The notes under the pieces are model-generated. The model made no database searches and had not been told where the DNA came from. It saw only the letters and a program-made list of their open reading frames with translations. Source: Syntrophaceae bacterium (lineage in GTDB: Bacteria; Desulfobacterota; BSN033; UBA1163). Taken from it: a stretch of DNA of 64,000 nucleotides. The translations under genes and the position numbers were made by a program. Shown here piece after piece: positions 7,311 to 63,186 of the stretch (its first letter is position 1; every line of letters begins with the position of its first letter). The DNA lies in NCBI GenBank assembly GCA_013388645.1, contig JACAEV010000100.1:24934-88933 (forward strand), written 5' to 3'.

Positions 7311-8806
7311 GTCGTGATCCAATGGCGGCCATCCCGTTCGAGCAATTGCTTGGCTTCCTCCGGTCCCCATGTCCCTGCCTCATAGTTTGGAAAGTGATCA
7401 GGGACAATGCTTTCCCACACTTCCAGGATAGGGACTAATATGGACCATGCAGCTTCTACTTGGTCATCACGCATAAAAAGCGTTGCATCCCCCAACATTG
7501 CATCCAATAATAGAGTTTCATAAGCTTCATGAATTGGTTTCCTAAAAGCTTCTCGATAGGTAAAACGCATATCGGCTGGACGGACTAACATTATTAAACC
7601 AGGCTGCTTAATCTGAAAGCGAAGATTAATGCCTTCCTCGGGTTGGATATGTATTACAATACGATTCGCTTGCCAGTCTTTTACAGAGGTAGATGGAAAA
7701 GACTGGTGAGGCACAGGTCGAAACTGAATAGAAACTTCTGAAACCTTGGCAGGTAGCCGCTTACCAGTTCGAAGATAGAAGGGTACATCCTGCCATCGCC
7801 AGTTATCAACAAGGAGTTTGAGAGCAACAAAGGTCTCGGTAATGGAATCCGGATCTACCCCAGTCTCCTCACGATAGCCAAGTACACGCAGTCCTTGAAG
7901 GCAGCCTGCTCCGTATTGGCCTCGAACAGTGAATCGATGGACTTGATCTTTAGGAATGGGTCGGATGGCATGCAGGACATCCACTTTCTTGTTACGTATT
8001 TCGTTGTCATTAAAAGATACTGGGGGTTCCATGGCGATGAGGCATAGGATCTGCAGCAGATGATTCTGTATCATATCGCGCAGGGCACCAGATTGGTCAT
8101 AATAGCCTCCCCGATGTTCCACTCCCACCTCTTCCGCTACGGTGATTTGAATATGGTCAATATAGCGTCGGTCCCAGATAGGCTCAAACAAAGCATTTGC
8201 AAATCTGAAAGCAAGAATATTTTGCACTGTTTCCTTCCCAAGATAGTGATCAATTCGGTAAATCTGGGATTCCTGAAAGAGGCTACTAAGAATCTGATTT
8301 AGGCCATGGGCCGACACTAAATCCCGACCAAAAGGTTTTTCTATAATAATGCGAGTTCGTTGGGGATCGTGAGATAGCCCGGCTTTCCCAAGATTTTTGG
8401 CAATTGCTTCAAACCCTTCGGGAGGCGTGGCTAAGTAAAAAGTGTGATTTGCATAAGTATGCCACGTTTTATCAAGCTTTGAAAGGTGATTGACCAGAGC
8501 GGTATATGCAGCAGAGTCATCATAATGGCCTGAAATGTAGCTGAAGTGGGAGGCAAAATCATGCCAATCCCGATCATTGGTTTTGCCACGGAGCGAAAAC
8601 CTATCTACTTTTTTGCGCAGGTGCTGTCGGAATGAAGTTTCGGTGAAATGTGTTCGGGCAAAACCGATAACCGCAAAGCATTCTGACAACCACTTATCGA
8701 CGAAAAGATTATAAAGTGCTGGTACTATTTTTCGCTCCGTAAGGTCACCTGAGGCACCAAAAATAACAATCACCATGGGTTTAAGATGCGATGGTAGAGT
8801 CATCAT
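7307..8806 (-). CDS. zwf: Glucose-6-phosphate 1-dehydrogenase
   Basis: IFGASGDLTERKIVPALYNLF NADP-binding N-terminus and the RIDHYLGKE active-site motif. 499 aa. Confidence 0.95.
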   Translation of the reverse strand: MMTLPSHLKPMVIVIFGASGDLTERKIVPALYNLFVDKWLSECFAVIGFARTHFTETSFRQHLRKKVDRFSLRGKTNDRDWHDFASHFSYISGHYDDSAAYTALVNHLSKLDKTWHTYANHTFYLATPPEGFEAIAKNLGKAGLSHDPQRTRIIIEKPFGRDLVSAHGLNQILSSLFQESQIYRIDHYLGKETVQNILAFRFANALFEPIWDRRYIDHIQITVAEEVGVEHRGGYYDQSGALRDMIQNHLLQILCLIAMEPPVSFNDNEIRNKKVDVLHAIRPIPKDQVHRFTVRGQYGAGCLQGLRVLGYREETGVDPDSITETFVALKLLVDNWRWQDVPFYLRTGKRLPAKVSEVSIQFRPVPHQSFPSTSVKDWQANRIVIHIQPEEGINLRFQIKQPGLIMLVRPADMRFTYREAFRKPIHEAYETLLLDAMLGDATLFMRDDQVEAAWSILVPILEVWESIVPDHFPNYEAGTWGPEEAKQLLERDGRHWITT

Positions 8807-8815
8807 ATTCCTCTT

Positions 8816-10231
8816 TCAAACTCGACCCCATTCCGTATGGAAACCCTCTCCTTTATCTATTCTCTCATAAGTATGTGCACCAAAGTAGTCACGCTGGGCC
8901 TGGGTCAGGTTGGCAGGCAACCAGGCGCTGCGATAACCGTCAAAATAGGCCAAGGTAACCATCATGGCAGGGACCGGTAGACCCAGTTCGATCGCAGTGA
9001 TGACAACGCGGCGCAGGTTTGCTTGCCGCTCCATTACTTCCTGCCCTAAATGAGGATCCAGGAGCAGGTTGACGAGGTCCCTCCGATTTTCGTATGCCCT
9101 TTGAATGTTCTCCAACAATGCCGCTCGGATAATGCATCCTCCTCGCCAGATCCGAGCCACGGCTTCAAGGTTCAAGCCATAGCCATATGCCTCCGAAGCC
9201 CCCTGAAGCAGGTTCATTCCTTGGGCATAGGTTATGATCATGCAAGCGTATAAAGCACCTCGGATGTGATCGATAAACGTTTTCTTATCTCCCCGGAAGG
9301 TTGTCTTAGGTCCCTGAAGCATTTGGCTTACCGCCTCCCTTTCGGTTTTGTGAGTCGACAGATTCCGAGCGATCACGGCTGCGTCGATCGTTGGCGTTGG
9401 AATCTGAAGATCCATCGCCTCACACGATGTCCACTTGCCAGTCCCTTTCTGCTTCGCTTGGTCGACAATCATGTCAATCAATCTCTTTGCCGTCTTATCA
9501 TCCGGCTGCTGAAAAATTTTCGTCGTGATCTCTATTAAGTAGGAATTCAATTCCTTCCGATTCCACTGGCCGTAGACGGAATGCAGTTCGTCGTTCGTCA
9601 AACATAGCCTTCGTTTCATCAGGTCATAGGTCTCCGCAATCAGCTCCATGACTCCGTATTCAATCCCGTTGTGGACCATTTTGACATAGTGCCCTGCAGA
9701 TCCCGATCCCAAAAAGGCGACACAGGGTTCTCCGTTTACATTTGCCGAAACGGCTTCCAAGATCGGACGGACCCTTTCAAAGGCCTCTTTTTGCCCTCCC
9801 GGCATCATGCTGGGGCCGTGGCGGGCACCATACTCACCTCCAGAGATACCCATACCCATATAGAACAAGCCCTTTTCAGCCAACGATTTGCCTCGACGAT
9901 TCGTATCAGAAAAATGAGAGTTCCCGCCATCAATAACCAGATCGCCGACTTCAAGGAGGGGAAAGATCCCTTCGATCACATCATCCACCGGCGCCCCTGC
10001 CTCGACCATGATTAGAATGGCTCGGGGTTTTTTCAGTAAACTGATAAATTCTTGTAAAGTGTAAGCAGATCGGATTTTCCGTTCACCAGCTTCCTTTTCA
10101 ATAAATTCTCGAGTTTTTTCCGCAGTCCGGTTATAAACACCCACTGAGAAACCGTGATCTGCCATATTCAGTGCCAGATTCCTCCCCATCACCCCCAAAC
10201 CAATCAAACCTATATCACACTCATGGGTCAT
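8816..10231 (-). CDS. gnd: 6-phosphogluconate dehydrogenase (decarboxylating)
   Basis: IGLIGLGVMGRNLALNMADHGF Rossmann N-terminus. Start set at the internal ATG (MTHECDIG) because GGAGG lies 5 nt upstream. The track ORF extends to 10264. Confidence 0.9.
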   Translation of the reverse strand: MTHECDIGLIGLGVMGRNLALNMADHGFSVGVYNRTAEKTREFIEKEAGERKIRSAYTLQEFISLLKKPRAILIMVEAGAPVDDVIEGIFPLLEVGDLVIDGGNSHFSDTNRRGKSLAEKGLFYMGMGISGGEYGARHGPSMMPGGQKEAFERVRPILEAVSANVNGEPCVAFLGSGSAGHYVKMVHNGIEYGVMELIAETYDLMKRRLCLTNDELHSVYGQWNRKELNSYLIEITTKIFQQPDDKTAKRLIDMIVDQAKQKGTGKWTSCEAMDLQIPTPTIDAAVIARNLSTHKTEREAVSQMLQGPKTTFRGDKKTFIDHIRGALYACMIITYAQGMNLLQGASEAYGYGLNLEAVARIWRGGCIIRAALLENIQRAYENRRDLVNLLLDPHLGQEVMERQANLRRVVITAIELGLPVPAMMVTLAYFDGYRSAWLPANLTQAQRDYFGAHTYERIDKGEGFHTEWGRV

Positions 10232-11196
10232 GATTGCCTCCATATTCTCACAAAAGCATTGCACATTGAATTGACCAATGACTTCAACGTAACGTTAAGA
10301 AGTCATCATTGCGTGAGTGATCACGCCAAATAAGGGGGAAGGGAAGATGCCCAACCCTAAAATCAGAACCAAAACAACGACGCCTGCGAGGAGGGCAGAA
10401 AGGTCGATCTATCGCAGTCAAATCATCCAGGCAGAGGAACCGACGCGTGGACTCGCCCTTGAGAAACCGCAGAACGTCCTTTGCCTGTTTTTCGGCTACG
10501 TGAAAGCTAACGTATCCGCCGTTGGGGGAGTCTCCTGGATCGCATCGTCAAATTTTTCCTTCTTATCCGGTTGGGAGGATACCACATTCATAAGGCCTCT
10601 GTTTCTCCTGATTTGGTTTCTTCTCTCCCAGCCAGCTTGAAAGAAAAAGGATAACCCCTATCAGCATGAAGGCACGAATCACATAAATGCCAAGAGAAAG
10701 GAGGCCTAGTTCCCAGGGGGTCACTGTTAGGCTATTTGATTCGAATTCCAAACTTTTCCTCTCCAACCTCGAGGCAACGAAACAGAACCGGTTCGCCTCT
10801 TGGCCTAACATTTAACTATTCTAATTATTTTCAATGGTCTACTTTACAAGAAACATGCCAGGATAACGAAATGATATGGTATTGTTTTAAAATTCAAATG
10901 GTTAAGTGTTGTATACTGTCATGAAGGAGGGGTAAAAGTTTCTGAAGATGTCCTGCAAGACAGGATTCTGTCCCTTGGAGCAGGAATTCGTCTATTCTAA
11001 CAAGACGTATCGGAGGGTTTTAGAGGCCATCAGAAAGTCACGAGACCCCAGCGATATGCTTTTTATCAAAACGACTTTCGCTGAACCCAATACATACCCT
11101 GGGCAGCGGGCACTTTCATTCCGCGTCATTAGCAATCTTGGCAGCATTTCCTTGTCTGGCAAATATCATCTTTAGTGAATGAATAACGGAAGAATC

Positions 11197-13251: not shown

Positions 13252-15696
13252 CTATAATACAAATTTTTTGAACAAATAGTATTTGGGGAAATCGATACCC
13301 AGTGTAAATAAGGCCGAGAATCCCAGAATAGCAAGGACCTGATATAACGTGAGGGATGGGACAAGGATATCGTATACGCCAAGTAGCGCAAATCCAATGA
13401 TGGTCGCTGCACTCAAAATAAGTAATTCCCTGCCAGGACGTGATGACCAGAAGTGTCTCCTTTCTCTTACGATGAGTACTCTAAACTGGCTGTTAAATAT
13501 GAGATTCAGCATGACGAGGGTGCGCAACTTCTCCCATTCAAGATGGAAATATTTCATCCCCATGAGGATTACGATCATACCCTCCACAACCAGCAGTATC
13601 CCTGGAATGAGTGATGCCAGAGTAATGTTCTTCACATTCCACTTGTTCGGATTGCTTGTATGCTTTACATTGTCGGTTGCCAGAGACATGGTTACGAAAT
13701 CGTTTGCAAACACAAGCAGCGACATCCCGAGGAGAGAGAGCACAACTTCATGGAGCCAGAAGAAGCTCAGGGTCAATAGACCGACGAATTCTATGACCTT
13801 CGTAACCTTATTTAGGACCCATGTCAGCATCCGTTGATAGGTCTTCCTACTTATGGTTACCGCATCAATGATCACGCTCATGCCTGGTTCGGTTAAGACC
13901 ACGCTTGCTGACGCTTTCGCGGCGTCGGTCGAGTTGCTTACCGCTATTCCCATCTCCGCCTGCTTCAGTGCCGGCGCATCGTTAACCCCATCTCCGGTCA
14001 TCCCTACCATGTGACCCCTGGATTGCAGAAGTTTCACGACTTTGTACTTGTCCTCGGGATAGATCTCGGCAAACCCGTCGCTCTCTTCGACTACCTTCAC
14101 CTGTTCATTTTCGCTTAAGTGTTCAATATCAGCCAGTCGGATAATGTTACTGCCGATACCCACCTGATAGGCTATTTCTTTCGCTATGGCAATATTATCA
14201 CCGGTAAGCATCAGCGGCTTTATTCCCTGCTTTCTTGCTTCCTCGATCATGCTTTTTGAGTCCAGCCTGGGTGGATCAGCCATCGGCAGCAATCCTACAA
14301 GTTTGAGATTATCCAAATCATCGCCTTCCGATCGAGCAACTGCTATGGTTCTGTACCCTTTCTGAGAAACCTCTTCTATGGTTCTCTTTGCCTTCTCTAT
14401 GGCCTCTTTATCGATTCCCCGGCACAGAGTTATGACTACCTGGGCTGCGCCTTTAACAGCTTTAAAACGCTTCCCATCGGCTTCAATGATCGCCTCTGTT
14501 CTCTTGACCGACGGATTGAAGGGTGTATATGAAAGTTGTTTGTACGCATTAAGATCAACTCGCGTATTTTTAGCGTATCCAATAACTGCAAGGTCTATGA
14601 TATCCATGCCCTCCTCTTGCGACGATAGGGCGGCTATGGCAATTACATCTTCTTTCGAATATCCGGAGAACGGTATGCTGTCGGTAACCGACAATTTGTT
14701 CTGAGTCATCGTACCTGTCTTATCGAGGCAGAGGACGTCTACTGAAGCGGCATCCTCGATCGAATCGAGCCTCGTGACCAGTGCTCCTTTTTTTGCCAGC
14801 TCCATTGCTCCGACGGACTGGACTATGGTGAGAACGGCCGGAAGGGCTACAGGGACCGCGCCCATCAGGAAGATTACCGCGAAAGTCAGTATCAGCAGGA
14901 TACCTAAATGCATCACTAACACATCTATTGAAACTAAAACCGATGCGGCTATACCCAAATACATCATATATTTGACCACAGCCATCATTACTTCCTCCTG
15001 ATGGGACTTTGGCTTGGCTGTTTTGACCAGTTCCGCTGTTTTACCGAAGTACGTATTTGCTCCCGTATTGATGACCGCGCACCTGGCCTCTCCACGCCTC
15101 ACTACGGAACTCGCGTAGATGACGTCCGATTGGCGCGCCTCCACAGCCAAGGATTCTCCGGTCAGGGCTGACTGATCAACTGAAAGCTGGCCGCTCACAA
15201 TCTCGGCATCGGCCGCCACGATATCCCCGATTCCGACGGTGATGATGTCCCCGGGCACGATCTCCTTAGCCTCCCTTATTCCCCATCTCCCATCCCGTAA
15301 TACCTTAGCTTTTATCGCCAGCTTTTTCTTGAGAAGTTCGACCGCTCTCTGCGAACCCCGTGAGTGCATGTGGCCAATGATTGCGTTTACGGTGAGTAGC
15401 AAAAAGATAATTATCCCTTCAAGATAATGTCTCAGTACGAACGAGAGGCCCATCGCCAGCTCCAGAAGCCACGGCATGGGCCCCCAGTATCGCAGCAAAA
15501 ATTCAAAAAAAGGATTTTTCTTCTTCTCCACTATTTCATTATATCCAAAGAATTCGAGTCGATTCTTAACTTCACTCTCCGTAAGACCCTCTGCTGTTGT
15601 GTTTAAGAGTTTGAACGTCTCTTCAATAGGGGATTTCTTGTATTCAGAGGTGTTTTTAATTTTTAAGTCCATAAAAGCAATCCTATTCCGTAACAA
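13252..15696 (-). CDS. P-type ATPase, type IIIA (plasma-membrane proton-pump-like), 814 aa
   Basis: CLDKTGTMTQNKL phosphorylation motif, MTGDGVNDAPALKQAEMGIAV hinge, TGES actuator motif. C-terminal region LIVRERRHFWSSRPG is typical of H+-ATPase-like pumps. Confidence 0.9.
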   Translation of the reverse strand: MLRNRIAFMDLKIKNTSEYKKSPIEETFKLLNTTAEGLTESEVKNRLEFFGYNEIVEKKKNPFFEFLLRYWGPMPWLLELAMGLSFVLRHYLEGIIIFLLLTVNAIIGHMHSRGSQRAVELLKKKLAIKAKVLRDGRWGIREAKEIVPGDIITVGIGDIVAADAEIVSGQLSVDQSALTGESLAVEARQSDVIYASSVVRRGEARCAVINTGANTYFGKTAELVKTAKPKSHQEEVMMAVVKYMMYLGIAASVLVSIDVLVMHLGILLILTFAVIFLMGAVPVALPAVLTIVQSVGAMELAKKGALVTRLDSIEDAASVDVLCLDKTGTMTQNKLSVTDSIPFSGYSKEDVIAIAALSSQEEGMDIIDLAVIGYAKNTRVDLNAYKQLSYTPFNPSVKRTEAIIEADGKRFKAVKGAAQVVITLCRGIDKEAIEKAKRTIEEVSQKGYRTIAVARSEGDDLDNLKLVGLLPMADPPRLDSKSMIEEARKQGIKPLMLTGDNIAIAKEIAYQVGIGSNIIRLADIEHLSENEQVKVVEESDGFAEIYPEDKYKVVKLLQSRGHMVGMTGDGVNDAPALKQAEMGIAVSNSTDAAKASASVVLTEPGMSVIIDAVTISRKTYQRMLTWVLNKVTKVIEFVGLLTLSFFWLHEVVLSLLGMSLLVFANDFVTMSLATDNVKHTSNPNKWNVKNITLASLIPGILLVVEGMIVILMGMKYFHLEWEKLRTLVMLNLIFNSQFRVLIVRERRHFWSSRPGRELLILSAATIIGFALLGVYDILVPSLTLYQVLAILGFSALFTLGIDFPKYYLFKKFVL

Positions 15697-42600: not shown

Positions 42601-45126
42601 TCACAATAAATTTACCTTTCTGTAAAAGAATCTTTTTACCACCTCCGCTACCACTACGTAGACACCGACAATCATTCCCATCAATAAAATGAACATACCT
42701 GATAGAGGCTGGAACCCTAAAAGACTTCCAAGAGGAGAGTAGGGGAAGAGAAATGTTACGCCAATAATCAATAATGTTGTCATTGTGAGATATCTTCCTG
42801 GTCTGCTCTTAAAAAAGGGCCTCCGAGTCCGAATGACGAGGACAACTACCGAAGCTGAAATCACTGATTCTAAGAACCATCCCGTACGAAACATTTCTGG
42901 CTTAGCATGAAGAATAAATAGCAATACACCGAAGGTGATGAAGTCAAAGACCGAACTCACGGGCCCAAATGTAATCATGAAATTCCGGATGAACTTGATG
43001 TCCCAGCGTTGAGGCTTTTCAACCATTTCATGATCAACGCTGTCTGTCGCAATGGTCATCTCTGGGAAATCTGTTAGCAAATTCGTAAGGAGAATCTGTT
43101 TCGGCAACATAGGAAGGAAAGTCAGGAAAAGGGAAGCTCCTGCCATGCTGAACATATTTCCAAAGTTAGCGCTGGTCGCCATGAACATATATTTGAGCGT
43201 ATTGGCAAACGTTCTTCTTCCCTCCCGGACGCCTTCCACCAATACTGCCAACTCCTTTTCAAGGAGCACAATGTCAGCAGCCTCTTTCGCCACATCTACC
43301 GCGCTATCGACGGAAATTCCAACATCGGCAGCATGAAGTGCAGAGGCATCATTGATTCCGTCCCCCATATAACCTACTACATTTCCAGCCTTTTTTAAGG
43401 CGAGGATGATCCGTTCTTTTTGATTGGGCTCCACTTCGGCAAAGATTTCTACATCATTGACTCTTCGGAATAGGGCTTCATCGCTCATCTCATGAATATC
43501 TCCACCCGTAACGAAGTGTGGATTTGTTAATCCTACTTGTTGGCTAACATTGATAGCCACTAAAGAGTTGTCTCCAGTAATAATCTTCAATGAAATACCC
43601 AGATGATTCAACTGATGAATGGTCTCGATAATTCCTGCCTTAGGTGGATCAAAGAGGATTAAAAATCCCAAAAATATCATGTCGATTTCATGATCCTTTG
43701 TGATATGAGAAATAGGCCCTATATCCTTGTAAGCGATCCCTAAGACGCGAAATCCCTGATGGCTGATTTCCTCAAACCGTTGACGAATCTCCTCCTGTAG
43801 AAGAGCGATATCTACGATTTTCCCTTCACAATTTTCTGCCGTTGAACAGCTCTCCAAAACATTTTTGCAAGCCCCTTTCGTAATCATCAGATTCCGTTTC
43901 TCTTTGCAGACCACTATGCTTAATCGTTTACGAATAAAATCATAAGGCACTTCATCTCGTTTTTCGTAACCCGTCAGATCAAAGGGATGGTGTGTCCGAA
44001 TGGCTTCGTCAATGGGATTTCTAAAGCCTGTTTCATAAATAGAATTGAGATAAGCATAGAACAGTACTTTTTCGCTTTCCCTCCCATGAACATCGATTGC
44101 AGAATGTAGCTGCACCACCCCTTTTGTCAATGTCCCGGTTTTATCAGAGCAGAGCACGTTTATGCTGCCAAAGTTCTCAATGGAAGCCAGGCGTTTCACA
44201 ATTACTTTTTTAAGGGCCATGCCTTTAGCACCGCGGGCGAGGTTGACACTGATAATGGCAGGAAGCAGTTGCGGAGTTAGGCCAACTGCCAGGGCCAAGG
44301 CAAATAGAAATGATTCTAAGACTGGCCGTTTGAAATAGACATTGGTGGCAAAGATGGCAATCACAAGGACCAAGGTCACTTCCATCAGAAGATACCCAAA
44401 TCGCCTGACACCGCGCTCAAACTCTGTCTCCAGAGGCCTGAGCTTCAGCCGTTCGGATACTTTGCCAAATTCGGTGTCCTTTCCTGTGCGGACGACGACC
44501 GCTCTTCCACTACCACTGACCACATGGGTTCCCATGAAGAGAGAGTTTGTCCGCTGATGAAGTGGCGTTTCCCCTGGTAGAACCCCAATCGTTTTTTCTA
44601 CAGGATAGGTTTCACCTGTCAATGTTGCTTCATCGACAAATAGGTCCTTAGATTCCAGAATGAGGCAATCTCCAGGGATAATATCTCCCGAATTGAGGAT
44701 GAGAACATCTCCTGGGGCAATCTCTTCCACGGGGACTTCTTTTGAATATCCATTGCGAAGAACCAAGGTTTTGTTCCGGACAAGAGATATTAATTTATTG
44801 ACAGCATCCACGGCTCCTCGCTCTTGCCAGAATCCGAGTAAACCGCTGATCAAGACGATCACCAAGATGATGAGGGCATCCGACGGATCATGTAGAGAAA
44901 GGGACAATCCCGCTGCAAAGAGAAGGATGATAATAATCGGGCTCTTGAATTGAGAAAGCAGGAGGGTCAGGGCGTCTGATCGCTTTTTCGGCTTGAGTAG
45001 ATTGAATCCATAACGATTCAGTCGTTGTTTGACCTCATCCTCTGTCAAGCCCTGTGATGTTGTTCGAAGTTGCTGAATTAGTTCTTCAGGGGAAAGGCTC
45101 CAAAAAGACCTTAAATTTCGATCCAA
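42601..45126 (-). CDS. mgtA: Magnesium-translocating P-type ATPase (type IIIB, MgtA-like)
   Basis: 841 aa. LLLSQFKSPIIIILL N-terminal signature, CSDKTGTLTKG phosphorylation site, GDGINDASALHAADVGISV hinge. Confidence 0.9.
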   Translation of the reverse strand: MDRNLRSFWSLSPEELIQQLRTTSQGLTEDEVKQRLNRYGFNLLKPKKRSDALTLLLSQFKSPIIIILLFAAGLSLSLHDPSDALIILVIVLISGLLGFWQERGAVDAVNKLISLVRNKTLVLRNGYSKEVPVEEIAPGDVLILNSGDIIPGDCLILESKDLFVDEATLTGETYPVEKTIGVLPGETPLHQRTNSLFMGTHVVSGSGRAVVVRTGKDTEFGKVSERLKLRPLETEFERGVRRFGYLLMEVTLVLVIAIFATNVYFKRPVLESFLFALALAVGLTPQLLPAIISVNLARGAKGMALKKVIVKRLASIENFGSINVLCSDKTGTLTKGVVQLHSAIDVHGRESEKVLFYAYLNSIYETGFRNPIDEAIRTHHPFDLTGYEKRDEVPYDFIRKRLSIVVCKEKRNLMITKGACKNVLESCSTAENCEGKIVDIALLQEEIRQRFEEISHQGFRVLGIAYKDIGPISHITKDHEIDMIFLGFLILFDPPKAGIIETIHQLNHLGISLKIITGDNSLVAINVSQQVGLTNPHFVTGGDIHEMSDEALFRRVNDVEIFAEVEPNQKERIILALKKAGNVVGYMGDGINDASALHAADVGISVDSAVDVAKEAADIVLLEKELAVLVEGVREGRRTFANTLKYMFMATSANFGNMFSMAGASLFLTFLPMLPKQILLTNLLTDFPEMTIATDSVDHEMVEKPQRWDIKFIRNFMITFGPVSSVFDFITFGVLLFILHAKPEMFRTGWFLESVISASVVVLVIRTRRPFFKSRPGRYLTMTTLLIIGVTFLFPYSPLGSLLGFQPLSGMFILLMGMIVGVYVVVAEVVKRFFYRKVNLL

Positions 45127-49645: not shown

Positions 49646-51010
49646 TCAGGATTCTCTAAAATCTTCTGTTTTTAGACCATGTTTCTTTAGGAGATCGTAG
49701 AAATCAACCCGGTGCTTTCCAGCAAGCTTTGAGGCGTTGGTCACATTGCCTTCACAGAGTTCAAGGAGGCGGATAAGATATTCCTTCTCAAACTCATCTC
49801 TGGCTTCTCTGAGAGGTTTTACAGATCCCTGGGAGATTGACAGTGTGGTTTTGAGAATAAGGTCTTCAGTAAGGACATCTTTTTGAGCCATGGCCACCGC
49901 GTACTCTATGGTGTTCTCTAACTCTCGCACATTCCCGGGCCATTCATGAAGCATCAGCTTCTGTATTGCCTTAGGGGTGAAACCTTTCACCTCCTTTTTC
50001 ATCTCGCCGCTGAATTTCTTTAGGAAGTATCTTGCTAAAGGCGGAATGTCTTCTTTTCTTTCTCTCAACGGCGGCAGAAGGATGGGGACAACATGAATCC
50101 GGTAAAAGAGATCTTCACGGAAAAGTCCTTGTTTAACCTGGTCTTCAAGGTCTCTCTGAGTGGCCACAATCACCCGAATATCCACCTCCACAGATCTTTC
50201 ACTGCCCACCGGATAGAACTGTCGCTCTTGAAGCACCCTCAGAAGTTTGGCCTGAATTGAAAGAGGCATATCTCCAATCTCATCCAAAAAGATAGTGCCT
50301 TCATGACCCTGAGTAAACAAACCTCTTTTACTCCGAATCGCCCCGGTAAAGGCCCCCTTTTCATGGCCAAAAAGTTCAGACTCCAGGAGATTTTCAGGAA
50401 GAGCGGCACAATTGATTGCTACGAAGGGTTTATCCCTCCTCTCACTTGCAACGTGAACAGCTTTTGCGATCAACTCCTTGCCCGTGCCGCTCTCTCCATG
50501 GATATAGACTGTAGAATCCGTTTGGGCAATCCTGGATACCACTTCCAGCACCCTTTGCATCTTCTCGCTTTTGGCCACAATATTTGAAAACTCATACTTC
50601 TCTTTCAGAAGACCCTTAAGCCGTTTGATTTCCGAGGTGAGCCTTCGATTCTCCAAAGCCTTTTCGATTTGTAAGAGCAGGTCGGGGGGATTAAAAGGCT
50701 TGGTAATGTAGCTATAGGCTCCTCTTTTCATGGCCTCCACCGCACTCCCAATCGTTCCATAGGCTGTGACGATAATGACGGGCATCTCAGGGAGAATCGC
50801 ATGAAGTCTCTCCATTAATGAGATCCCATCCTGGTGGATTAGCTGGAGATCGACAAGGGAGACGTCAAACGTTTGCTCCTTGATCGCCTCGATGGCCTCC
50901 TCTTCTTGTAGGGCTGCGGTTACCTTATAGCTTGCAGACTCGAGTCTGATTTTTACCAGGTCTATGAAATTTCTGTCATCATCAACTAATAAGATCTTTC
51001 CTGAAACCAT
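49646..51010 (-). CDS. Sigma54-dependent response regulator (NtrC family: receiver, AAA+ and HTH)
   Basis: Receiver LLVDDD...DVSLVDLQL, Walker A GESGTGKE, GAFTGA motif ESELFGHEKGAFTGA, C-terminal HTH NVTNASKLAGKHRVDFYDLLKKHGL. Confidence 0.9.
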   Translation of the reverse strand: MVSGKILLVDDDRNFIDLVKIRLESASYKVTAALQEEEAIEAIKEQTFDVSLVDLQLIHQDGISLMERLHAILPEMPVIIVTAYGTIGSAVEAMKRGAYSYITKPFNPPDLLLQIEKALENRRLTSEIKRLKGLLKEKYEFSNIVAKSEKMQRVLEVVSRIAQTDSTVYIHGESGTGKELIAKAVHVASERRDKPFVAINCAALPENLLESELFGHEKGAFTGAIRSKRGLFTQGHEGTIFLDEIGDMPLSIQAKLLRVLQERQFYPVGSERSVEVDIRVIVATQRDLEDQVKQGLFREDLFYRIHVVPILLPPLRERKEDIPPLARYFLKKFSGEMKKEVKGFTPKAIQKLMLHEWPGNVRELENTIEYAVAMAQKDVLTEDLILKTTLSISQGSVKPLREARDEFEKEYLIRLLELCEGNVTNASKLAGKHRVDFYDLLKKHGLKTEDFRES

Positions 51011-55890: not shown

Positions 55891-57678
55891 TCATTCTGAA
55901 AAGAAATCGTTGGCTTCAACGATTGCACCTCCTATCTGTTGCCTTGTGATCAGCCCTTTGACGTTACTGGCCTGAGCGGCTGCTGACCCATTTGTGACCA
56001 GGGCAATGGAAACATTGCGAGAACGCATCCTTTCTGCGATGGCGAAAAGTGTTGTCTCTTCCAACACGGTCACGTACCCTTCATGTGCGACCTCCTCCAA
56101 TGTGGTTGTCTCGTTCGATTCCCCCAGGGTTTCCACGAGAGTATCTTTCGAGACAACACCGAGGATTTCCCCACCTCGGTTTTCCACCAGAAATGCCAAT
56201 GCATCATTCTTTTTGGGGCCCATTCGGATAAGCTCCCTGAGTGGCATTGAAGCCGGCACAGTCATAAAATGGGTATCCATGAGTTCACGTGCCCTTCTCA
56301 ACTGTTGGAAATTTGCCTGCAACGTCTGGGGGATGATGTGCCCCCGACGGGCGAGTTTCATCGTATAAATGCTCTCCTTTGAAAGCATCGTTCTTACCCC
56401 GTAACCGATCGCCACAGTGATCGTCATGGGGATGATCACGTTGTAGTTCAAAGTCATCTCAAAGATCATCACAATGGCTGCCATCGGTGCCCCTGTGGCT
56501 CCCCCTGTCATTCCCGCCATCCCCGCAACGGCAAATGCCGGTGGATCGATCGGCAATTCGGGGAAGATCTGGCGCAGGATAAGCCCGAATGTTCCGCCCA
56601 AGGTGGCACCCAAATAGAGAGAGGGCGAGAAAATTCCGCCCGATGCACCCGAACCCAAGGTAACGGATGTGGCAAACAGTTTCAGGATAAAAAGGAGACC
56701 GAGAAGCTTTGCTTCAGAAAGTCTGTCCGTGAAGATGTCCTGAAGGGTCGCATACCCCACCCCCTCGACGTAGTAGTAACCAAGACTGGCCATCAATAGA
56801 TAGATGATAATGCCTACGAGTAACATTCCAATCATATGGCGGAGATAGGGGTTCCTCTTGATCCTTTGGTCGAAAAAATCTTCAAAGACATAGATTGATT
56901 TGATATAGACCGCGGAGGCGGCCCCCAAAAGGATACCCAGGCTTGCATAGGAGAGAAGTAAGAGTGGGTTGTCGATATGAAAATAGAGCATCTCAAAACT
57001 CGGTATCATGAAGGAAGGATAGGGGCCAAAGAAGATTTGACCTATGTATGTAGCCGTAACGGTGGCGATGGCCACGGGAACGATCGTTTTTACGCTTACC
57101 TCGTGGAGCATGAGTTCATAAGCAAACAGGACTCCGCCGATTGGCGTGTTAAAGGTAGCGGCTATCCCGGCTCCAGTCCCTGCTGCAATTAATATAATAC
57201 GTTGCCAGGTGGGCATACGCAGGATCTGGCCGACAGTGGATCCGAAAGAAGAACCAATTTGAACAATGGGCCCTTCCCGGCCAACCGATCCACCGCTACC
57301 GATAGAAAGTGCAGAGGCAATCGACTTAATCAAGGCGACGACGGGTCGAATGATACCCTTGTGGTAGTAGATTGCATCCATTACCTCAGGCACCCCATGC
57401 CCCTTGGCCTCCGGGGCGAAATTTTGAACGAGGAAAGTGACACCGATGGCTCCTACCACAGGCACGAAAATAACCCCCAGACCCCAAGGACTGGGGGACG
57501 TATGCACATTGGCGTCATAGACCACGGACAGTTTTCCAAGGAACAATAAGTTGTGAAAGAAAGCAATCAGTCCCCGGAATGCCACAGCCCCTAAACCGGC
57601 CACGACTCCAATTAGAATTGACAATAAGAAGAATCTAAAGGGTTGAAGGCTCGATCTTTGCCAAGTCGTTTCATCCAT
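55891..57678 (-). CDS. ClC-family chloride channel / H+-Cl- antiporter with C-terminal CBS pair
   Basis: Selectivity-filter motifs GSGGSVGREGP, GTGAGIAATFNTPIGG and GSGASGGIFSPSLYLG. C-terminal CBS domains. Confidence 0.85.
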   Translation of the reverse strand: MDETTWQRSSLQPFRFFLLSILIGVVAGLGAVAFRGLIAFFHNLLFLGKLSVVYDANVHTSPSPWGLGVIFVPVVGAIGVTFLVQNFAPEAKGHGVPEVMDAIYYHKGIIRPVVALIKSIASALSIGSGGSVGREGPIVQIGSSFGSTVGQILRMPTWQRIILIAAGTGAGIAATFNTPIGGVLFAYELMLHEVSVKTIVPVAIATVTATYIGQIFFGPYPSFMIPSFEMLYFHIDNPLLLLSYASLGILLGAASAVYIKSIYVFEDFFDQRIKRNPYLRHMIGMLLVGIIIYLLMASLGYYYVEGVGYATLQDIFTDRLSEAKLLGLLFILKLFATSVTLGSGASGGIFSPSLYLGATLGGTFGLILRQIFPELPIDPPAFAVAGMAGMTGGATGAPMAAIVMIFEMTLNYNVIIPMTITVAIGYGVRTMLSKESIYTMKLARRGHIIPQTLQANFQQLRRARELMDTHFMTVPASMPLRELIRMGPKKNDALAFLVENRGGEILGVVSKDTLVETLGESNETTTLEEVAHEGYVTVLEETTLFAIAERMRSRNVSIALVTNGSAAAQASNVKGLITRQQIGGAIVEANDFFSE

Positions 57679-57795
57679 CAGAGATCCCTTTCTGTCTGAA
57701 ACTTAACACCAAAGCCTGCCTTCTTCTGCAATTCAGAGCGGTTCTGCTTTCTCATTTCGCTTCATTTCACACATCCCTCTTCTTCGTCAAAACTT

Positions 57796-59568
57796 CTATG
57801 ATGTAATAGGGCCGTCTTGAGATCGAATGCCAACCCGTCCGTTTTCCACAGAAATAAGATTATTAATTTCTTGAGCGGAAGCAAGATCAAACACTCTTTT
57901 GGCGACTGACTGCCAGTGCTCATATTTAACTGAGCGAACGATTTTTTTTGCTTCGAGAAGACAAGAAGGATTCATACTTAAATCGGTCAACCCTATCCCA
58001 AGCAAAAGAGGGATATAAGCTGCTGTCCCAGCCATTTCTCCACAAAGGGTAATTTGTTTATTTGTGCGATTTGCCACTTCAACAACATTTCGAATCAGCC
58101 GCAGGACAGCTGGGTTTAGCGGGTCATAAAGATGCTTTACCAAATCATTATCGCGATCCACTGCGAGCGTATATTGGGTCAAATCGTTTGTACCGATACT
58201 GAGGAAATCGACCTCTTTTGCTATTTGGTCAGCGAGGATCGCAACAGAAGGTATTTCGATCATCACCCCAAAAAGAATTCCTTCGTCAAAAGGAATCCCT
58301 TCTATTTGAAGTTCTTTTTTGGTCGATTCGAACAGATCTCGGATCTCCGTAACTTCCCCAATGTTTGAAATCATTGGGAAAAGAATCTTCACAGGTCCGT
58401 AGGCACTTGCTCTCAGAATCGCCCGAAGCTGCTGCTTGAAAAGATCCTTCTCTTTCAAAAACACACGGATGGACCGATAACCCAAGAAAGGATTCTTCTC
58501 TTTCTGGCTCTTCCCATCTTCAAAAAATTTATCCCCTCCAAAATCGAGTGTCCGGATTGTGACTTCCCTGCCCGCAGCCTCGGTAACTACTTTCTGATAG
58601 AGAGAAAATTGTTCATCTTCGGAGAGGAATCTTCTCCAGACCAGAAACGGCAGCTCGGTTCTGAACAATCCAATGCCATAGGCACCAAAACGAAGTGCGT
58701 ATTCAAGGTCGGTTAGTCCTCCGATATTAGCCCATAACCGAATTTCGCGGCCGCCAAGGGTTTCGCAAGGTAAAGAAACGAGTTTACATAATTCCGTTTG
58801 ATATGATTCCCGTTTCCTCTGGAGATCATGATAATTTTGGATGAGTTCCAAAGGCGGACGAATGAGTACGATACCTGTATCACCATCGACGATCAGGGTA
58901 TCCCCTTTCTTAACCTTTGAAAGTAATCCCTCTATACCGAGGACTGCAGGAATCCCAAGAGAACGAGCAAGAATCGCGGCATGAGAGTCCCTCCCTCCCA
59001 ACTCTGTTACAAAAGCAAGAACTTTTTTCTTGTCTAATCTGACCGTATCGGAGGGTGCCAGTTCCGAGGTTACCAATATCACTGGTTCCTTAAAATCCCA
59101 TGGGGGTTCCTGTGTTGACGTCAGCTTTCCGATAATTCTCCTTCCGATGTCCCTGATGTCAGCGCCACGCTCCCGTAAATAAGGGTCACCCATCTTATTA
59201 AAAGCTTCTCCAAACTCGTCAATTTGCCTCAAAACCGCTGACTCTGCATCAACCCGATCTTCCCGAATATCTTTTAAGATCCGAGCGATGAAATAAGGGT
59301 CCTTAAGTATTGCAAGGTGGGCAAGAAAGATCTCTGCTTCTTTCTTACCGATCCTTAGAGACAACTGTGAGTTATCTTCCATCAACTCATCGGTCACTTG
59401 ACGAATGGCCTCTTTAAGGTGGGCAACCTCTTCCTCTGCATGTGCCTCTTCGAGATTCCTCCTTTCAACCATCAGAAGAATGTCCTGAAAGACATAAGCC
59501 TTCCCGATGACGATTCCCGGTGAAGCGGCAATCCCCTTTAGAAACCATTTGCTAATTTCTTCATGCAT
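57796..59568 (-). CDS. ptsI: Phosphoenolpyruvate-protein phosphotransferase (PTS enzyme I)
   Basis: GIAASPGIVIGKAYVF N-terminus, phospho-His region GGRDSHAAILARSLGIPAV, PEP-binding LFRTEL. 590 aa. Confidence 0.85.
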   Translation of the reverse strand: MHEEISKWFLKGIAASPGIVIGKAYVFQDILLMVERRNLEEAHAEEEVAHLKEAIRQVTDELMEDNSQLSLRIGKKEAEIFLAHLAILKDPYFIARILKDIREDRVDAESAVLRQIDEFGEAFNKMGDPYLRERGADIRDIGRRIIGKLTSTQEPPWDFKEPVILVTSELAPSDTVRLDKKKVLAFVTELGGRDSHAAILARSLGIPAVLGIEGLLSKVKKGDTLIVDGDTGIVLIRPPLELIQNYHDLQRKRESYQTELCKLVSLPCETLGGREIRLWANIGGLTDLEYALRFGAYGIGLFRTELPFLVWRRFLSEDEQFSLYQKVVTEAAGREVTIRTLDFGGDKFFEDGKSQKEKNPFLGYRSIRVFLKEKDLFKQQLRAILRASAYGPVKILFPMISNIGEVTEIRDLFESTKKELQIEGIPFDEGILFGVMIEIPSVAILADQIAKEVDFLSIGTNDLTQYTLAVDRDNDLVKHLYDPLNPAVLRLIRNVVEVANRTNKQITLCGEMAGTAAYIPLLLGIGLTDLSMNPSCLLEAKKIVRSVKYEHWQSVAKRVFDLASAQEINNLISVENGRVGIRSQDGPITS

Positions 59569-59692: not shown

Positions 59693-62183
59693 TCAGATGG
59701 TCCATCTGTTGCTCCTTCTGAGTAGGAGTCCCAGGTATTTCGGGTCAAAAATTCGATAGGTCACAAGTTTTACTCGATCGTTTAGCAGGAACCAGATCAA
59801 GGCATAGCCCCATACCAGCAGTGCCCATCCCCAACCAATCGGGGTCATAAAGAGGCCATAGACTGTGATGAATGTTGCAACCAATTGGGTTCCTACCACA
59901 GCCCAAATGAGAACCGGTGCAGGCCGAGAGGACCAGAATGGACCACGGGTGCGGGTAACAAATATCGTTAAATGGCCAGCCACAGAAAGCTTCAAATATA
60001 TCAGAGACTGAATCATCTCCCCTGGAAGATGGAAGGTGTGTTCAGCCAAGTAAAAAAGGCCAAAGGAAGCAAGGACCCCCACAATACCAAGCCAAGCATT
60101 GTAGCCACTCCTAAAACCATTGGCATGTTCCATGATTCGGGCTGATTAGAGTAACGGGTTTGATCGAAGGCAATGGATAAGATAGCACCGTCGTTGAGCA
60201 AGGCCAGCAAAACGATCATCACCGCCGTTACAGGATAGAAGTTAAAAACTAAGATCGATAAAGTCATAAACAGCAGTACTCGGATGGTCTCAGCGATGCG
60301 GTAGATCGCGTAACTGTTCATCCGCTGGAAGATTTTTCGGCTCTCCTTGATTGCATCGATGATCACCGACAGACCCGGCGTCAACAACACGATGGCCGCT
60401 GCCGCCCGCGCCGCGTCCGTCGCGCCCGAAACGGCGATGCCGCAGTCGGCTTTCTTCAGTGCGGGCGCGTCGTTCACCCCGTCGCCGGTCATGCCGACAA
60501 TGTGCTTGTGTTGCTGCAAGACATCGACAATGTGGAACTTATGCTCGGGGAACACCTGGGCAAAACTGTCCGCTTTCTCGATGGACTCCGCCAACTGCGC
60601 CGTCTCGTGATGACGCGTGTCGCCGAAGCCGCTGGCATCAAGGATGTTCGTACCCAGCCCCATTTGCCCGGCGGTTTCCCGACCAATTGCCAATTGATCA
60701 CCCGTAACCATCTTCACGTTCACGCCCATCTGCCGCACCGTGGCGATGGTCGCTTTCGAATCCTCGCGGGGTGGATCGTAAAGCGGCAGGACACCAAGAA
60801 ACTGCCAACGCCCCTGCTCGTCGGTGCGCGCCACGCCGAGAGAACGGAAGCCGTGTGCCGCAAAGCTGTTGATCGCTTTCTCTACTACGGACTTTACCTG
60901 CGCCGCATTGGCCGCCAACTCCAATATCACCTGTGCCGCACCTTTCGTCACCTTGAACGTTTTCCCATCTGCCGTTTTAACAGTGGCCTCGGTGCGCTTG
61001 TGCACGGGGTCGAAAGGCTGGAAGTTCGTGACTCGGTAACTGTTCAGTTGCTGACCATCCTTCACACCACTGAGGACTGCGAGATCGATCGTATCCCGAT
61101 TTTCGGCACGCGACGCCAGCGCGGCGTTGAGAATCACCTGATCGGAGTTGACTCCTTCGACGCTGAACGGGACGCCCAGAGTCAGCTTGTTCTGCGTCAG
61201 CGTGCCCGTTTTGTCTGAGCAGAGCACATCCATCCCCGCCAACTCTTCGATAGCTACGAGCCGACTGACAATCGCTTGTTTTGTCGCCAGCAGCCGCGCC
61301 CCCACGGCCATTGTTACTGACATAACGGTTGGCATTGCCACCGGAATGGCGGCCACGGTCAGCACCAGCGCAAACTGCAGCGTGGTGGTCATCTTGTCGC
61401 CACGAAACAGCGCAACTGCCAGAATCATAATCACCAGCGCCACCGCCAGCATGATCAGGTAGTCGCCGATTTTTAACACAGCGCGCTGGAAGTGGCTAAC
61501 GGTGTGCGCCTCCTGCACCAGTTGCGCGGTCTTGCCGAAGTAGGTCTTCTGACCCGTACCATACACCAGCCCATCAATTTCGCCTTGACGAATAATCGAC
61601 CCCGAGTAAACCGCCTCGCTGGGTTTGCGCGTAACGGGCAACGACTCACCCGTCAATGCGGACTGATCCACTTCCACCGGGTCACCCTCCAACAAGCGCG
61701 CATCTGCCGGTACGATGTCGCCGAGACGCAGGCGGACAACGTCGCCCGGTACAAGCTCACGCGCACGGACGGACGTCCACTTCCCGTCTCGCCGCACACG
61801 AGCTTGCAGCGCTAGTTTCTCTTTAAGCGCTGCAATAGCGTTGCAAGCCTGGTATTCTTCCCAGAAACCAACGGCAGCATTGGCCACCAGCAGCACAAGG
61901 ATAATGAAGAAATCTGGCCAGTGCCTCACCATCGCTGACAGAACCACCGCTGCTTCGATCATCCAAGGGATGGGTCCCTAAAATAGGACAAAAATTTCAG
62001 AAGGGGATTCTTTTTTTCCCCAGGAAGTTCGTTGTATCCATACTGAGCAAGACGGCGTTGGGCTTCTTCCTGACTAAGACCAGCCATTGATATATCGAAA
62101 ACCTTCTTCAATTTTTCAGATGATAGATCCCTATTAGCTCTGGATTCATTTGTATCTTGTTTCGGGTACTTCTGACTTCTCAT
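59693..62183 (-). pseudogene. Second type IIIA P-type ATPase, split into three ORFs by two frameshifts, with a high-GC central core
   Basis: N-terminal piece (…LSQEEAQRRLAQYGYNELPGEKKNPLLKFLSYF), core (CSDKTGTLTQNKL, GDGVNDAPALKKADCGIAV) and C-terminal piece (…IYLKLSVAGHLTIFVTRTRGPFWSS…) are contiguous and in the same orientation. The frame changes are at about 61968 (T4-A-G3 run) and about 60080 (C5 run). The segment at about 60340-61820 is roughly 70% GC against about 47% in the flanks. Confidence 0.7.
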
Positions 62184-62193
62184 CTCATCTCCC

Positions 62194-63186
62194 CTAATTC
62201 CGAGCATTGCTGATACCATCTGATGAACTTTTATGTTTGGGCTGCGATTCTGAGAAATAAGATGATACTTTCTTTTCTTTCTCCAGCATATCCAATGCAT
62301 TATAGGCTGCTTGAGGAACCTCCACTGCTGGTTCGATATCTTCCAGCGCGACTTTCAGCGGAACAAGATATTTTCTTAGTTCACCTTTCGCCAGATCATG
62401 AATGACATGATGCGCACCCTCTCTAAGAAGTGTCGAATCTCCTCTTTTCATTAAAGCTTGAAGCAGTGGTTTTAGACCCTTAATATTCATTCCAATCAAC
62501 CCGACCGCAGCCAGCCAACGAACGTCGAATTCATCATCCTCCAGAACCTCTGTAAGAGCGGGTGCGGCGTTTGGATCCCCTATTTCACCAAGGGCTTTTG
62601 CAGCTTCCCATCTTACCCAATGTTGTGGATGTTTTAATGTTTCGATCAACTGAGGAACGGCCCGATTCCCCGTTCTCACAAGGGACTCCCGTGATTGGAT
62701 CCGGACAGTATCATCGCTTCTGGAAAGTTTCATGATAAGGCTTTGAATGGCTGGATCGATTTTATAGACCCCCATCCATCGATCCGATGCAACTCTATCG
62801 ATCACTCTTTTCAATTTGTCCGATACTTCCAATGCAATTTTTTTCAATTCCTTATTTTCTATCACTGCTAAAGCTGCTATTGGATTGAGGGCGGATACAT
62901 GGATTTTATTGTCTTCAATCTCATAGATGATTACATTACATGGAAGAAGTAAGCCAACATCTAACTCCGCTTGCAGGGATCGGTAGGCATAGAGAGGATT
63001 GCAGGCCCCTAAGATTAAATACTTTCTAAAATCCACATCTAATTTCTTTTTTAAGGTGGCCTTTACATCAATTTCTGTGAGAATCCCAAAACCTTCCTCT
63101 TTTAAAACTTCAATAACTTTTGAAACTGCCTCTTCATAAGAAGTTTCTAAAACCGTGCTGAAAACATATTCTTTAACCTTTTTCAT
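62194..63186 (-). CDS. DUF302-domain / HEAT-repeat fusion protein
   Basis: N-terminal ~130 aa resemble DUF302 (…FGILTEIDVKATLKKKLDVDFRKYLILGACNP…). The C-terminus carries HEAT/PBS-lyase-type repeats (HWVRWEAAKALGEIGDPNAAPALTEVLEDDEFDVRWLAAVGL). Confidence 0.6.
   Translation of the reverse strand: MKKVKEYVFSTVLETSYEEAVSKVIEVLKEEGFGILTEIDVKATLKKKLDVDFRKYLILGACNPLYAYRSLQAELDVGLLLPCNVIIYEIEDNKIHVSALNPIAALAVIENKELKKIALEVSDKLKRVIDRVASDRWMGVYKIDPAIQSLIMKLSRSDDTVRIQSRESLVRTGNRAVPQLIETLKHPQHWVRWEAAKALGEIGDPNAAPALTEVLEDDEFDVRWLAAVGLIGMNIKGLKPLLQALMKRGDSTLLREGAHHVIHDLAKGELRKYLVPLKVALEDIEPAVEVPQAAYNALDMLEKEKKVSSYFSESQPKHKSSSDGISNARN

Follow-up and report, generated by a model that had tools for sequence, protein, structure and literature searches.

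How does a gene with a GC-rich middle come to lie, broken into three reading frames, in DNA of clearly lower GC content? This question is raised by a predicted proton-pumping P-type ATPase gene on the minus strand of a 64-kb stretch of contig JACAEV010000100.1, from a Syntrophaceae bacterium. The whole 64-kb stretch is called here the window, and all coordinates and strands follow its numbering. We propose that the GC-rich middle of this gene was probably inherited from gene transfer combined with intragenic recombination, and that two small mutations later disrupted the pump gene. The positions of the features discussed are collected in Table 1.

One P3A ATPase gene in three reading frames

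Three minus-strand open reading frames (ORFs; 61959..62300, 60013..61962 and 59693..60133), each in a different frame, together encode a single P-type ATPase, of which they represent the N-terminal part, the core and the C-terminal part. The gene starts with an ATG at 62183, stops at 59693 and encodes 828 amino acids (aa) once both lesions are repaired. The repaired protein scores 1064.4 bits against the type IIIA (P3A) model TIGR01647, whose cutoff is 615.5, and the runner-up subfamily model, type IIIB, reaches 349.6 bits, under that model's own cutoff. It aligns over its full length with Arabidopsis AHA2 (PDB 5KSD, E ~1e-209), and its top matches among solved structures are 5KSD, 7VH5 and 1MHS.

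The P-type motifs are present in the repaired protein, with TGES at 178, DKTGTLT at 324, TGD at 494 and GDGVNDAPALK at 567. Arg635, in the fifth transmembrane segment (TM5; ETIR, 632-635), shares its alignment column with ITIR of the AHA2 chain 5KSD_A, as does Asp665 in TM6 (LNDG, 663-666) with LNDG of the same chain. In the P3A proton pathway, the TM6 acceptor/donor Asp and the TM5 controlling Arg correspond to D684 and R655 of AHA2 (PMC10654040). Judged by its sequence, the locus is a bona fide member of the P3A H+-translocating family, with transport as its predicted activity. The original prediction, in which the three ORFs make up one split type IIIA ATPase, agrees with both the TIGR01647 score and the AHA2 alignment.

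A GC-rich core shared by syntenic orthologues

The core of the gene (60340..61820) has 59.7% GC, against 44-48% in the gene ends and 46.4% in the whole window. No 1.5-kb stretch elsewhere in the window is as GC-rich, the others being at 46.3 ± 3.4% with a maximum of 54.4% (z ~4). At third codon positions the GC content (GC3) is 0.72 in the core versus 0.47 ± 0.06 in the 41 other genes of the window (maximum 0.61, z ~3.9), the N-terminal and C-terminal segments having values of 0.45 and 0.55, respectively. GC content at first codon positions (GC1) is also raised, the residues of the core being rich in Gly, Ala, Asp, Val and Arg. A core of about 70% GC had been announced in the original prediction; the contrast stands and its magnitude was overstated, as 200-nucleotide (nt) windows along the core peak at 66% and values of 70% or more are found only in some 100-nt windows (maximum 75%). 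Long antisense ORFs do cover the core, as had been noticed at the same time, for example at 60502..61218 (238 aa).

Protein searches recovered intact relatives that are 87-95% identical. An intact ATPase is present in every one of the loci L081-L089, where the flanks have 45-46% GC, the ATPase cores 57-66% and the ATPase ends 41-52%. The gene order of the window (DUF302/HEAT, ATPase, PtsI, ClC) recurs in L082-84, L085-87 and L089, which come from five Joint Genome Institute (JGI) samples, and synteny in L085-87 extends to two M16 peptidases, a histidine kinase and a sigma-54 regulator. Followed in 150-nt steps, the ATPase genes of these syntenic loci have 41-52% GC at the ends and 54-70% in the core, within flanks of 45.4-46.4%. 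L082, L083 and L084 encode one identical ATPase protein, as L085, L086 and L087 encode another, and the GC profiles match within each set. The low-high-low structure recurs in independent contigs of at least six further samples (3300049473, 3300060291, 3300056887, 3300056901, 3300056884 and 3300057025), and it is also seen in L081 and in L088, the latter lying in a different gene neighbourhood. A chimera peculiar to this assembly, one of the options first put forward, is excluded because the syntenic orthologues show the same profile; a second assembly, described below, also speaks against it, with a single mismatch in 16.2 kb.

The locus L088, which belongs to a more distant relative in JGI sample 3300056887, deserves a separate mention. 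Its ATPase gene has G6PD/6PGD, TreT and MscS genes near it on one side, and on the other it is followed by a gene for a DUF302-only protein, the version in the window being DUF302 fused to HEAT. Similarity between L088 and the window maps to 7443..10232 and to 59743..62081. Since the syntenic L083 was obtained from that sample as well, related ATPase alleles lie in different genomic contexts within one community.

Recombination within the gene

Synonymous divergence (dS) is strongly heterogeneous along the gene. Between the window and L082, it rises from 0.10 in the core to 0.29 in the N-terminal and 1.47 in the C-terminal segment, the flanking genes being at 0.95-1.21. Between the window and L085, the core is at 0.31, the two ends at 0.68 and 1.07 and the flanking genes at 0.35-0.94. 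The tract of high identity begins at about aa 61 and ends at a position that varies with the relative, about aa 645 for L082, aa 735 for L088 and aa 750 for L081; on the window, the tracts shared with L088 and L081 reach ~59980 and ~59930, respectively. The core of L088 is about 92% identical to that of the window, against 69-77% for the rest of the L088 genome.

Moreover, the nearest neighbours of the N-terminal, core and C-terminal segments are incompatible with one another, with reversals in 2000 of 2000 bootstraps. For L082, the core has its nearest neighbour in the window (96.6%), and the C-terminal segment has its own in L014 and L002 (90-92%; 69% to the window). Similarly, the ends of L089 group with the clade of the window, and its core groups with L090 and L002, outside that clade. 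Read from these comparisons, the gene is a product of intragenic homologous recombination among xenologous alleles, repeated and with different breakpoints by lineage.

Replacement of the core by recombination with a high-GC xenologue had been envisaged in the original prediction. The recombination itself is supported by the dS of 0.10 against 0.95-1.21 and by the incongruence of the segments, but the event is neither private to this genome nor recent as a whole, the pattern being clade-wide and partly ancient. A high-GC core in orthologues had also been named beforehand as a sign that the gene is not a mosaic; such a core is indeed found in them, but the orthologues turn out to be mosaics too.

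Spread of the family across phyla

A genome scan found proteins 72-84% identical to the window ATPase in metagenome-assembled genomes (MAGs) of more than 10 phyla, including Acidobacteriota, Desulfobacterota, Chloroflexota, Planctomycetota, Bacteroidota, Nitrospirota, Spirochaetota and Firmicutes. In nearly all of the 80 genome-contig loci of family members (L001-L080), the core has 55-66% GC, for host GC contents ranging from 39 to 65%; values below 55% occur only in five of the lowest-GC hosts. These identities and the near-independence from host composition imply extensive recent transfer of the putative P3A pump between phyla. Along the gene, GC3 hardly changes in most family members. Because low-GC3 ends around a GC-rich core are found only in the clade of the window, the GC contrast is not intrinsic to the protein.

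Two other loci carry an in-frame TAG at a conserved residue. In L022 (6001-8454, Desulfomonilaceae) a GAG codon has become TAG in AIEELAG, and in L028 (6001-8472, Nitrospirota) an AAG codon has become TAG in EDSKATI. These codons suggest recurrent inactivation of the ATPase. Alternatively, the stop codon could be recoded there.

Nature of the two frame lesions

The lesion sites were aligned at the DNA level with eight relatives (L081, L082, L085, L088, L089, L092, L002 and L001). Lesion 1 is a 1-nt deletion plus one substitution at a T5/G4 junction: the window has TATTTTAGGGACCC (61985..61972), and the relatives have TAT TTT TGG GGN CCC. The downstream frame is left reading F-TAG-G-P, the TAG replacing the conserved Trp codon of SYFWGPIPW. 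Its place had been correctly recognised beforehand, but a pure change of homopolymer length does not account for it, as both a deletion and a substitution are needed.

Lesion 2 falls in the segment after TM6, where the ancestral sequence was presumably ATG CTT GGT ATT GTG. It had been assigned to a nearby C5/G5 run; that run is the wild-type state and the actual lesion is the CTTGG duplication at 60096..60087. The G5 run at 60080..60076 is also present in four of the eight aligned relatives, all with an intact gene (L081, L085, L088 and L089), among which L081 and L088 are the two closest to the window there; the other four (L082, L092, L002 and L001) differ from GTG GGG GTC at these positions. 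Neither frameshift is present in any of the eight aligned relatives, nor in any orthologue fetched. Two exact-pattern scans of a metagenome-contig collection for either allele at site 2 gave no match; L081 and L088 ought to have been hit by the second pattern, so the relevant samples are absent from that collection. Since a deletion and a substitution are found at site 1 and a 5-nt insertion at site 2, the frame changes are not simple errors of homopolymer length.

A third change private to the window, this one in frame, lies beside an A7 run (62004..62024). It is equivalent to the insertion of 3 nt and the deletion of 3 nt at a distance of 8 nt, and affects residues that are conserved elsewhere.

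Probable recent inactivation of the gene

In the independent Logan assembly of SRR10095362, a run for which a literature search gave no result, a 38-kb contig aligns to 16,205 nt of the window without gaps and with a single mismatch. This contig carries both lesions, and its gene calls are of 74, 649 and 107 aa. The sole difference from the window lies at position 50324, with A in the window and G in the Logan contig (minus strand). Elsewhere on the minus strand of the window, 41 long ORFs follow one another with only ordinary intergenic gaps, and none is obviously broken. Because the lesions recur in the Logan contig and no obvious break is seen in these 41 ORFs, the lesions are most likely real changes in the DNA. 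Homopolymer sequencing errors, as first considered, fit poorly with lesions that are not simple run-length changes and that both appear in a second assembly.

Relative to the intact orthologues, the reading frame is disrupted by two frameshifts. Inactivation looks recent because the catalytic motifs are intact and amino-acid changes are not in significant excess, and we consider the gene most likely to be a recently inactivated pseudogene. Three window-private nonsynonymous changes (G114C, L508M and G540S) affect residues that do not vary among 84 homologues. The idea of a recently inactivated acquired gene, already listed in the original prediction, is supported by these data, with lesions private to this population and motifs intact.

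Gene neighbourhood and other ATPases of the window

The window contains three type III P-type ATPase genes. The disrupted ATPase is 39% identical over 799 aa to the intact gene at 13252..15696, which itself passes TIGR01647, so that the paralogy claimed from the start is confirmed; this intact paralogue could cover the function. The third gene (42601..45126, minus strand) encodes a type IIIB, Mg-translocating ATPase (TIGR01524, 825 bits).

A HEAT-repeat protein gene adjoins the ATPase gene on the same strand in L003, L004, L029, L045, L055, L078 and L090, which belong to several unrelated phyla and have varied contexts. The HEAT/DUF302 neighbour may be an accessory or regulatory partner of the ATPase. 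An involvement in acid or ion stress would agree with the neighbouring ClC H+/Cl- exchanger.

The window yielded no match in Rfam and tRNA scans, and the region is not explained by any tRNA gene or known RNA element; other signatures of mobile elements were not searched for. A 932-nt segment (10265..11196) between a 6-phosphogluconate dehydrogenase-like and a DedA-like gene contains no long ORF and has no Rfam match.

Table 1. Features of the disrupted ATPase gene and of its surroundings (window coordinates)
Feature	Position	Strand	Description and evidence
Disrupted type IIIA (P3A) H+-ATPase, whole gene	59693..62183	-	TIGR01647; AHA2 alignment
N-terminal fragment, 74 aa	61959..62183	-	Cation_ATPase_N; premature stop past the site-1 frameshift; Logan gene call of 74 aa with PF00690
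Core ORF, 649 aa	60013..61962	-	A, P and N domains and TM segments through TM6; ORF list, motifs, AHA2 alignment
C-terminal fragment ORF	59693..60133	-	TM7-TM10 region; GC3 ~0.55, nearer host genes; ORF list, GC3
GC-rich block	60290..61820	-	59.7% GC, GC3 ~0.72; GC3 rises at ~61820-61780 and falls at ~60340-60290
Recent-exchange tract with L082	60250..62000	-	92-100% (mostly 94-100%) nt identity; L082 flanking genes 77-85%
Lesion 1	61976..61983	-	TTTTAGGG in the window, TTTTTGGGG in 8 aligned relatives (TTT TGG GGN)
Lesion 2	60087..60096	-	CTTGGCTTGG; exact 5-bp tandem duplication CTTGG-CTTGG, frame shifted by 5 nt
G5 run (C5 on the plus strand)	60076..60080	-	GTG GGG GTC, wild-type state; alignment to 8 relatives
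In-frame window-private change beside A7 run	62004..62024	-	LPEKKTNP to LPGEKKNP; CCTGAGAAAAAGACGAATCCC to CCTGGGGAAAAAAAGAATCCC
DUF302 + HEAT-repeat protein, upstream neighbour	62194..63186	-	Conserved beside the ATPase in the clade, recurs in some other phyla
PtsI, downstream neighbour	57796..59568	-	TIGR01417, 591 bits
ClC-type H+/Cl- exchanger or channel, downstream neighbour	55891..57678	-	Conserved neighbourhood (55891..59568 with PtsI)
Intact distant paralogue, 814 aa	13252..15696	-	TIGR01647, 751.6 bits; profile score, pairwise alignment

Origin of the mosaic and alternative explanations

The scenario that we favour starts from a P3A proton-pump gene resident in the Syntrophaceae population, at its place in the conserved DUF302/HEAT - ATPase - PtsI - ClC neighbourhood. 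The family to which it belongs is GC-rich whatever the host and has spread among many phyla by horizontal transfer. In the clade of about 46% GC, the termini are closer to the host in composition (GC3 0.45-0.55), and between lineages they differ much more strongly than the core does. The latter (about aa 60-650), which is the best-conserved part of the protein, has been swapped by homologous recombination with lineage-specific breakpoints, its GC3 staying at about 0.7. We suppose that only this conserved core, with 88-90% aa identity across phyla, has enough nucleotide identity to recombine with incoming alleles. Being repeatedly replaced, it would remain GC-rich while the termini would drift toward host composition. 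In a last step, the deletion and substitution at the T5/G4 junction and the 5-bp tandem duplication after TM6 would have broken the gene.

Several observations do not sit easily with this scenario. The L089 core has a dS of 0.77 from that of the window, as diverged as the flanks, and yet is equally GC-rich. The GC contrast might therefore be due in part to slow amelioration or to constraints on synonymous sites, rather than to continual replacement. Because the L089 core is diverged and still GC-rich, we consider the GC-rich core to be old in the clade, with later exchanges on top. A search for donors outside the clade, among 120 homologous proteins and 92 loci, found no near-identical core, the best cores from outside being about 84-88% identical to that of the window in nucleotides and 88-90% in amino acids. 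As for the inactivation, the MAG and the Logan contig perhaps derive from one sequencing run, and a systematic error specific to the platform is conceivable. Finally, the changes private to the window number 16 nonsynonymous and 35 synonymous, compared with 13 and 54 for L081, the closest allele (odds ratio 1.9, Fisher p = 0.19). This weak and non-significant sign of relaxed selection suits a very recent loss, and it fits equally a functional gene with assembly errors.

The GC pattern could also be explained without recombination, by a compositional constraint on the family or the domain acting through amino-acid content or through codon selection in the cytoplasmic domains. The core GC of 55-66% that nearly all 80 loci maintain regardless of host would suit such a constraint, as would the raised GC1 of the core and the divergent L089 core that has kept its high GC. 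On the other hand, GC3 is about equal across segments in most members, low ends being restricted to the clade of the window, and neither the 10-fold jump in dS nor the nearest-neighbour reversals can come from constraint alone, which leaves this explanation improbable. Chimeric assembly, by which a high-GC piece of foreign DNA would have entered a low-GC contig, would account for the abrupt GC steps at ~61820 and 60340, the more so as the core is near-identical among co-occurring populations, where assemblers can cross from one genome to another. The chances of this are nevertheless very slight: the low-high-low profile comes with two-sided synteny in L082/83/84, L085/86/87 and L089, the independent Logan assembly reproduces the window, and L089 has the profile though its core resembles no co-assembled relative.

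Turning to the frame changes, the gene might be intact in the organism, both lesions being sequencing or assembly errors. All catalytic motifs are kept, the excess of nonsynonymous changes is not significant, site 1 is at the junction of a T-run and a G-run, the third odd change is in frame and beside an A7 run, and an identity of 92-97% to co-occurring relatives could confuse assemblers. We regard an intact gene as unlikely all the same, though less so than the two compositional explanations above, as neither a deletion with a substitution nor an exact 5-bp duplication is a simple run-length error, a second assembler reproduces both with one mismatch in 16.2 kb, and the two lesions fall in one 2.5-kb gene with no obvious break in the 41 other ORFs. 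A split that is functional, through programmed ribosomal frameshifting or a pump made as several polypeptides, has nothing specific in its favour apart from the four-U run at site 1, which permits a -1 slip of tRNA-Phe, and we give it next to no credence. Slipping by -1 at U UUU brings the ribosome straight onto UAG, the stretch from that UAG to the stop codon of the N-terminal frame contains no slippery heptamer, and no fetched orthologue of the clade shares the split; the pieces, moreover, cut TM1 and the membrane domain after TM6. Programmed frameshifting was rejected on these grounds, given that slip onto UAG and the two recoding events that would be required. Transfer and recombination followed by mutational loss is thus the reading that we retain.

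Significance for the P3A family

For annotation, the locus should be treated as one frameshifted P3A ATPase pseudogene rather than as three genes, and its GC anomaly is not to be read as contamination or misassembly. More generally, intragenic recombination can yield a sharp GC mosaic that is inherited clade-wide, which calls for caution in composition-based detection of chimeras and transfers.

In a review of the family, the transport function of prokaryotic P3A ATPases is described as yet to be determined and their distribution as mainly in methanogenic archaea (PMC10654040). The bacterial P3A pump described here is spread over many phyla at 72-84% identity, whereas reviews call prokaryotic P3A mainly archaeal. 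P3A-type pumps are commonly listed among the pH-homeostasis genes of acidophiles (PMC8196465), and the family could offer an entry point to proton-pump ecology in acidic, anoxic soils.

A broader idea, which we put forward only tentatively, is that the P3A catalytic core may be a recombination-mobile module, swapped among distantly related wetland and soil bacteria, in a gene that is recurrently inactivated (as in the window, L022 and L028). The core of such a module should stay GC-rich and near-identical across lineages, with termini specific to each lineage, and recurrent inactivation would be expected of a costly, conditionally useful acid-stress pump. This would then be a natural example, and an unusually clear one, of horizontal transfer acting on less than a whole gene, in a family reviewed as mainly archaeal among prokaryotes.

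Comparison with known systems

With the known P3A pumps (TIGR01647; plant AHA2, fungal Pma1 and the methanogen homologues) the window ATPase shares its architecture, the catalytic motifs, the TM5 Arg and the TM6 Asp. Eukaryotic P3A pumps have long regulatory N- and C-terminal extensions; the window ATPase is without them, as is usual for prokaryotic members (PMC10654040). It differs from these pumps also in that the copy is disrupted, its transport role being predicted from sequence.

The mosaic structure recalls another well-studied case. Mosaic genes formed by homologous recombination between species include those of the penicillin-binding proteins in Streptococcus pneumoniae and Neisseria. 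As in these genes, the window ATPase gene has intragenic blocks of distinct ancestry and divergence, allele-specific breakpoints and a conserved chromosomal position. Unlike them, it has no known selective agent, and the swapped block is the most conserved catalytic core; this block stands out by about 12-15 points of GC, and the partner genomes are only about 70-85% identical.

Lastly, the locus resembles ordinary pseudogenes that arise by small indels, with two small frame lesions in an otherwise well-kept frame and an intact paralogue in the same genome region. Nothing essential sets it apart from them, apart from its membership of a transfer-prone family in which premature TAGs are also found in L022 and L028. 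The processes involved are well known, and the locus needs no new kind of system.

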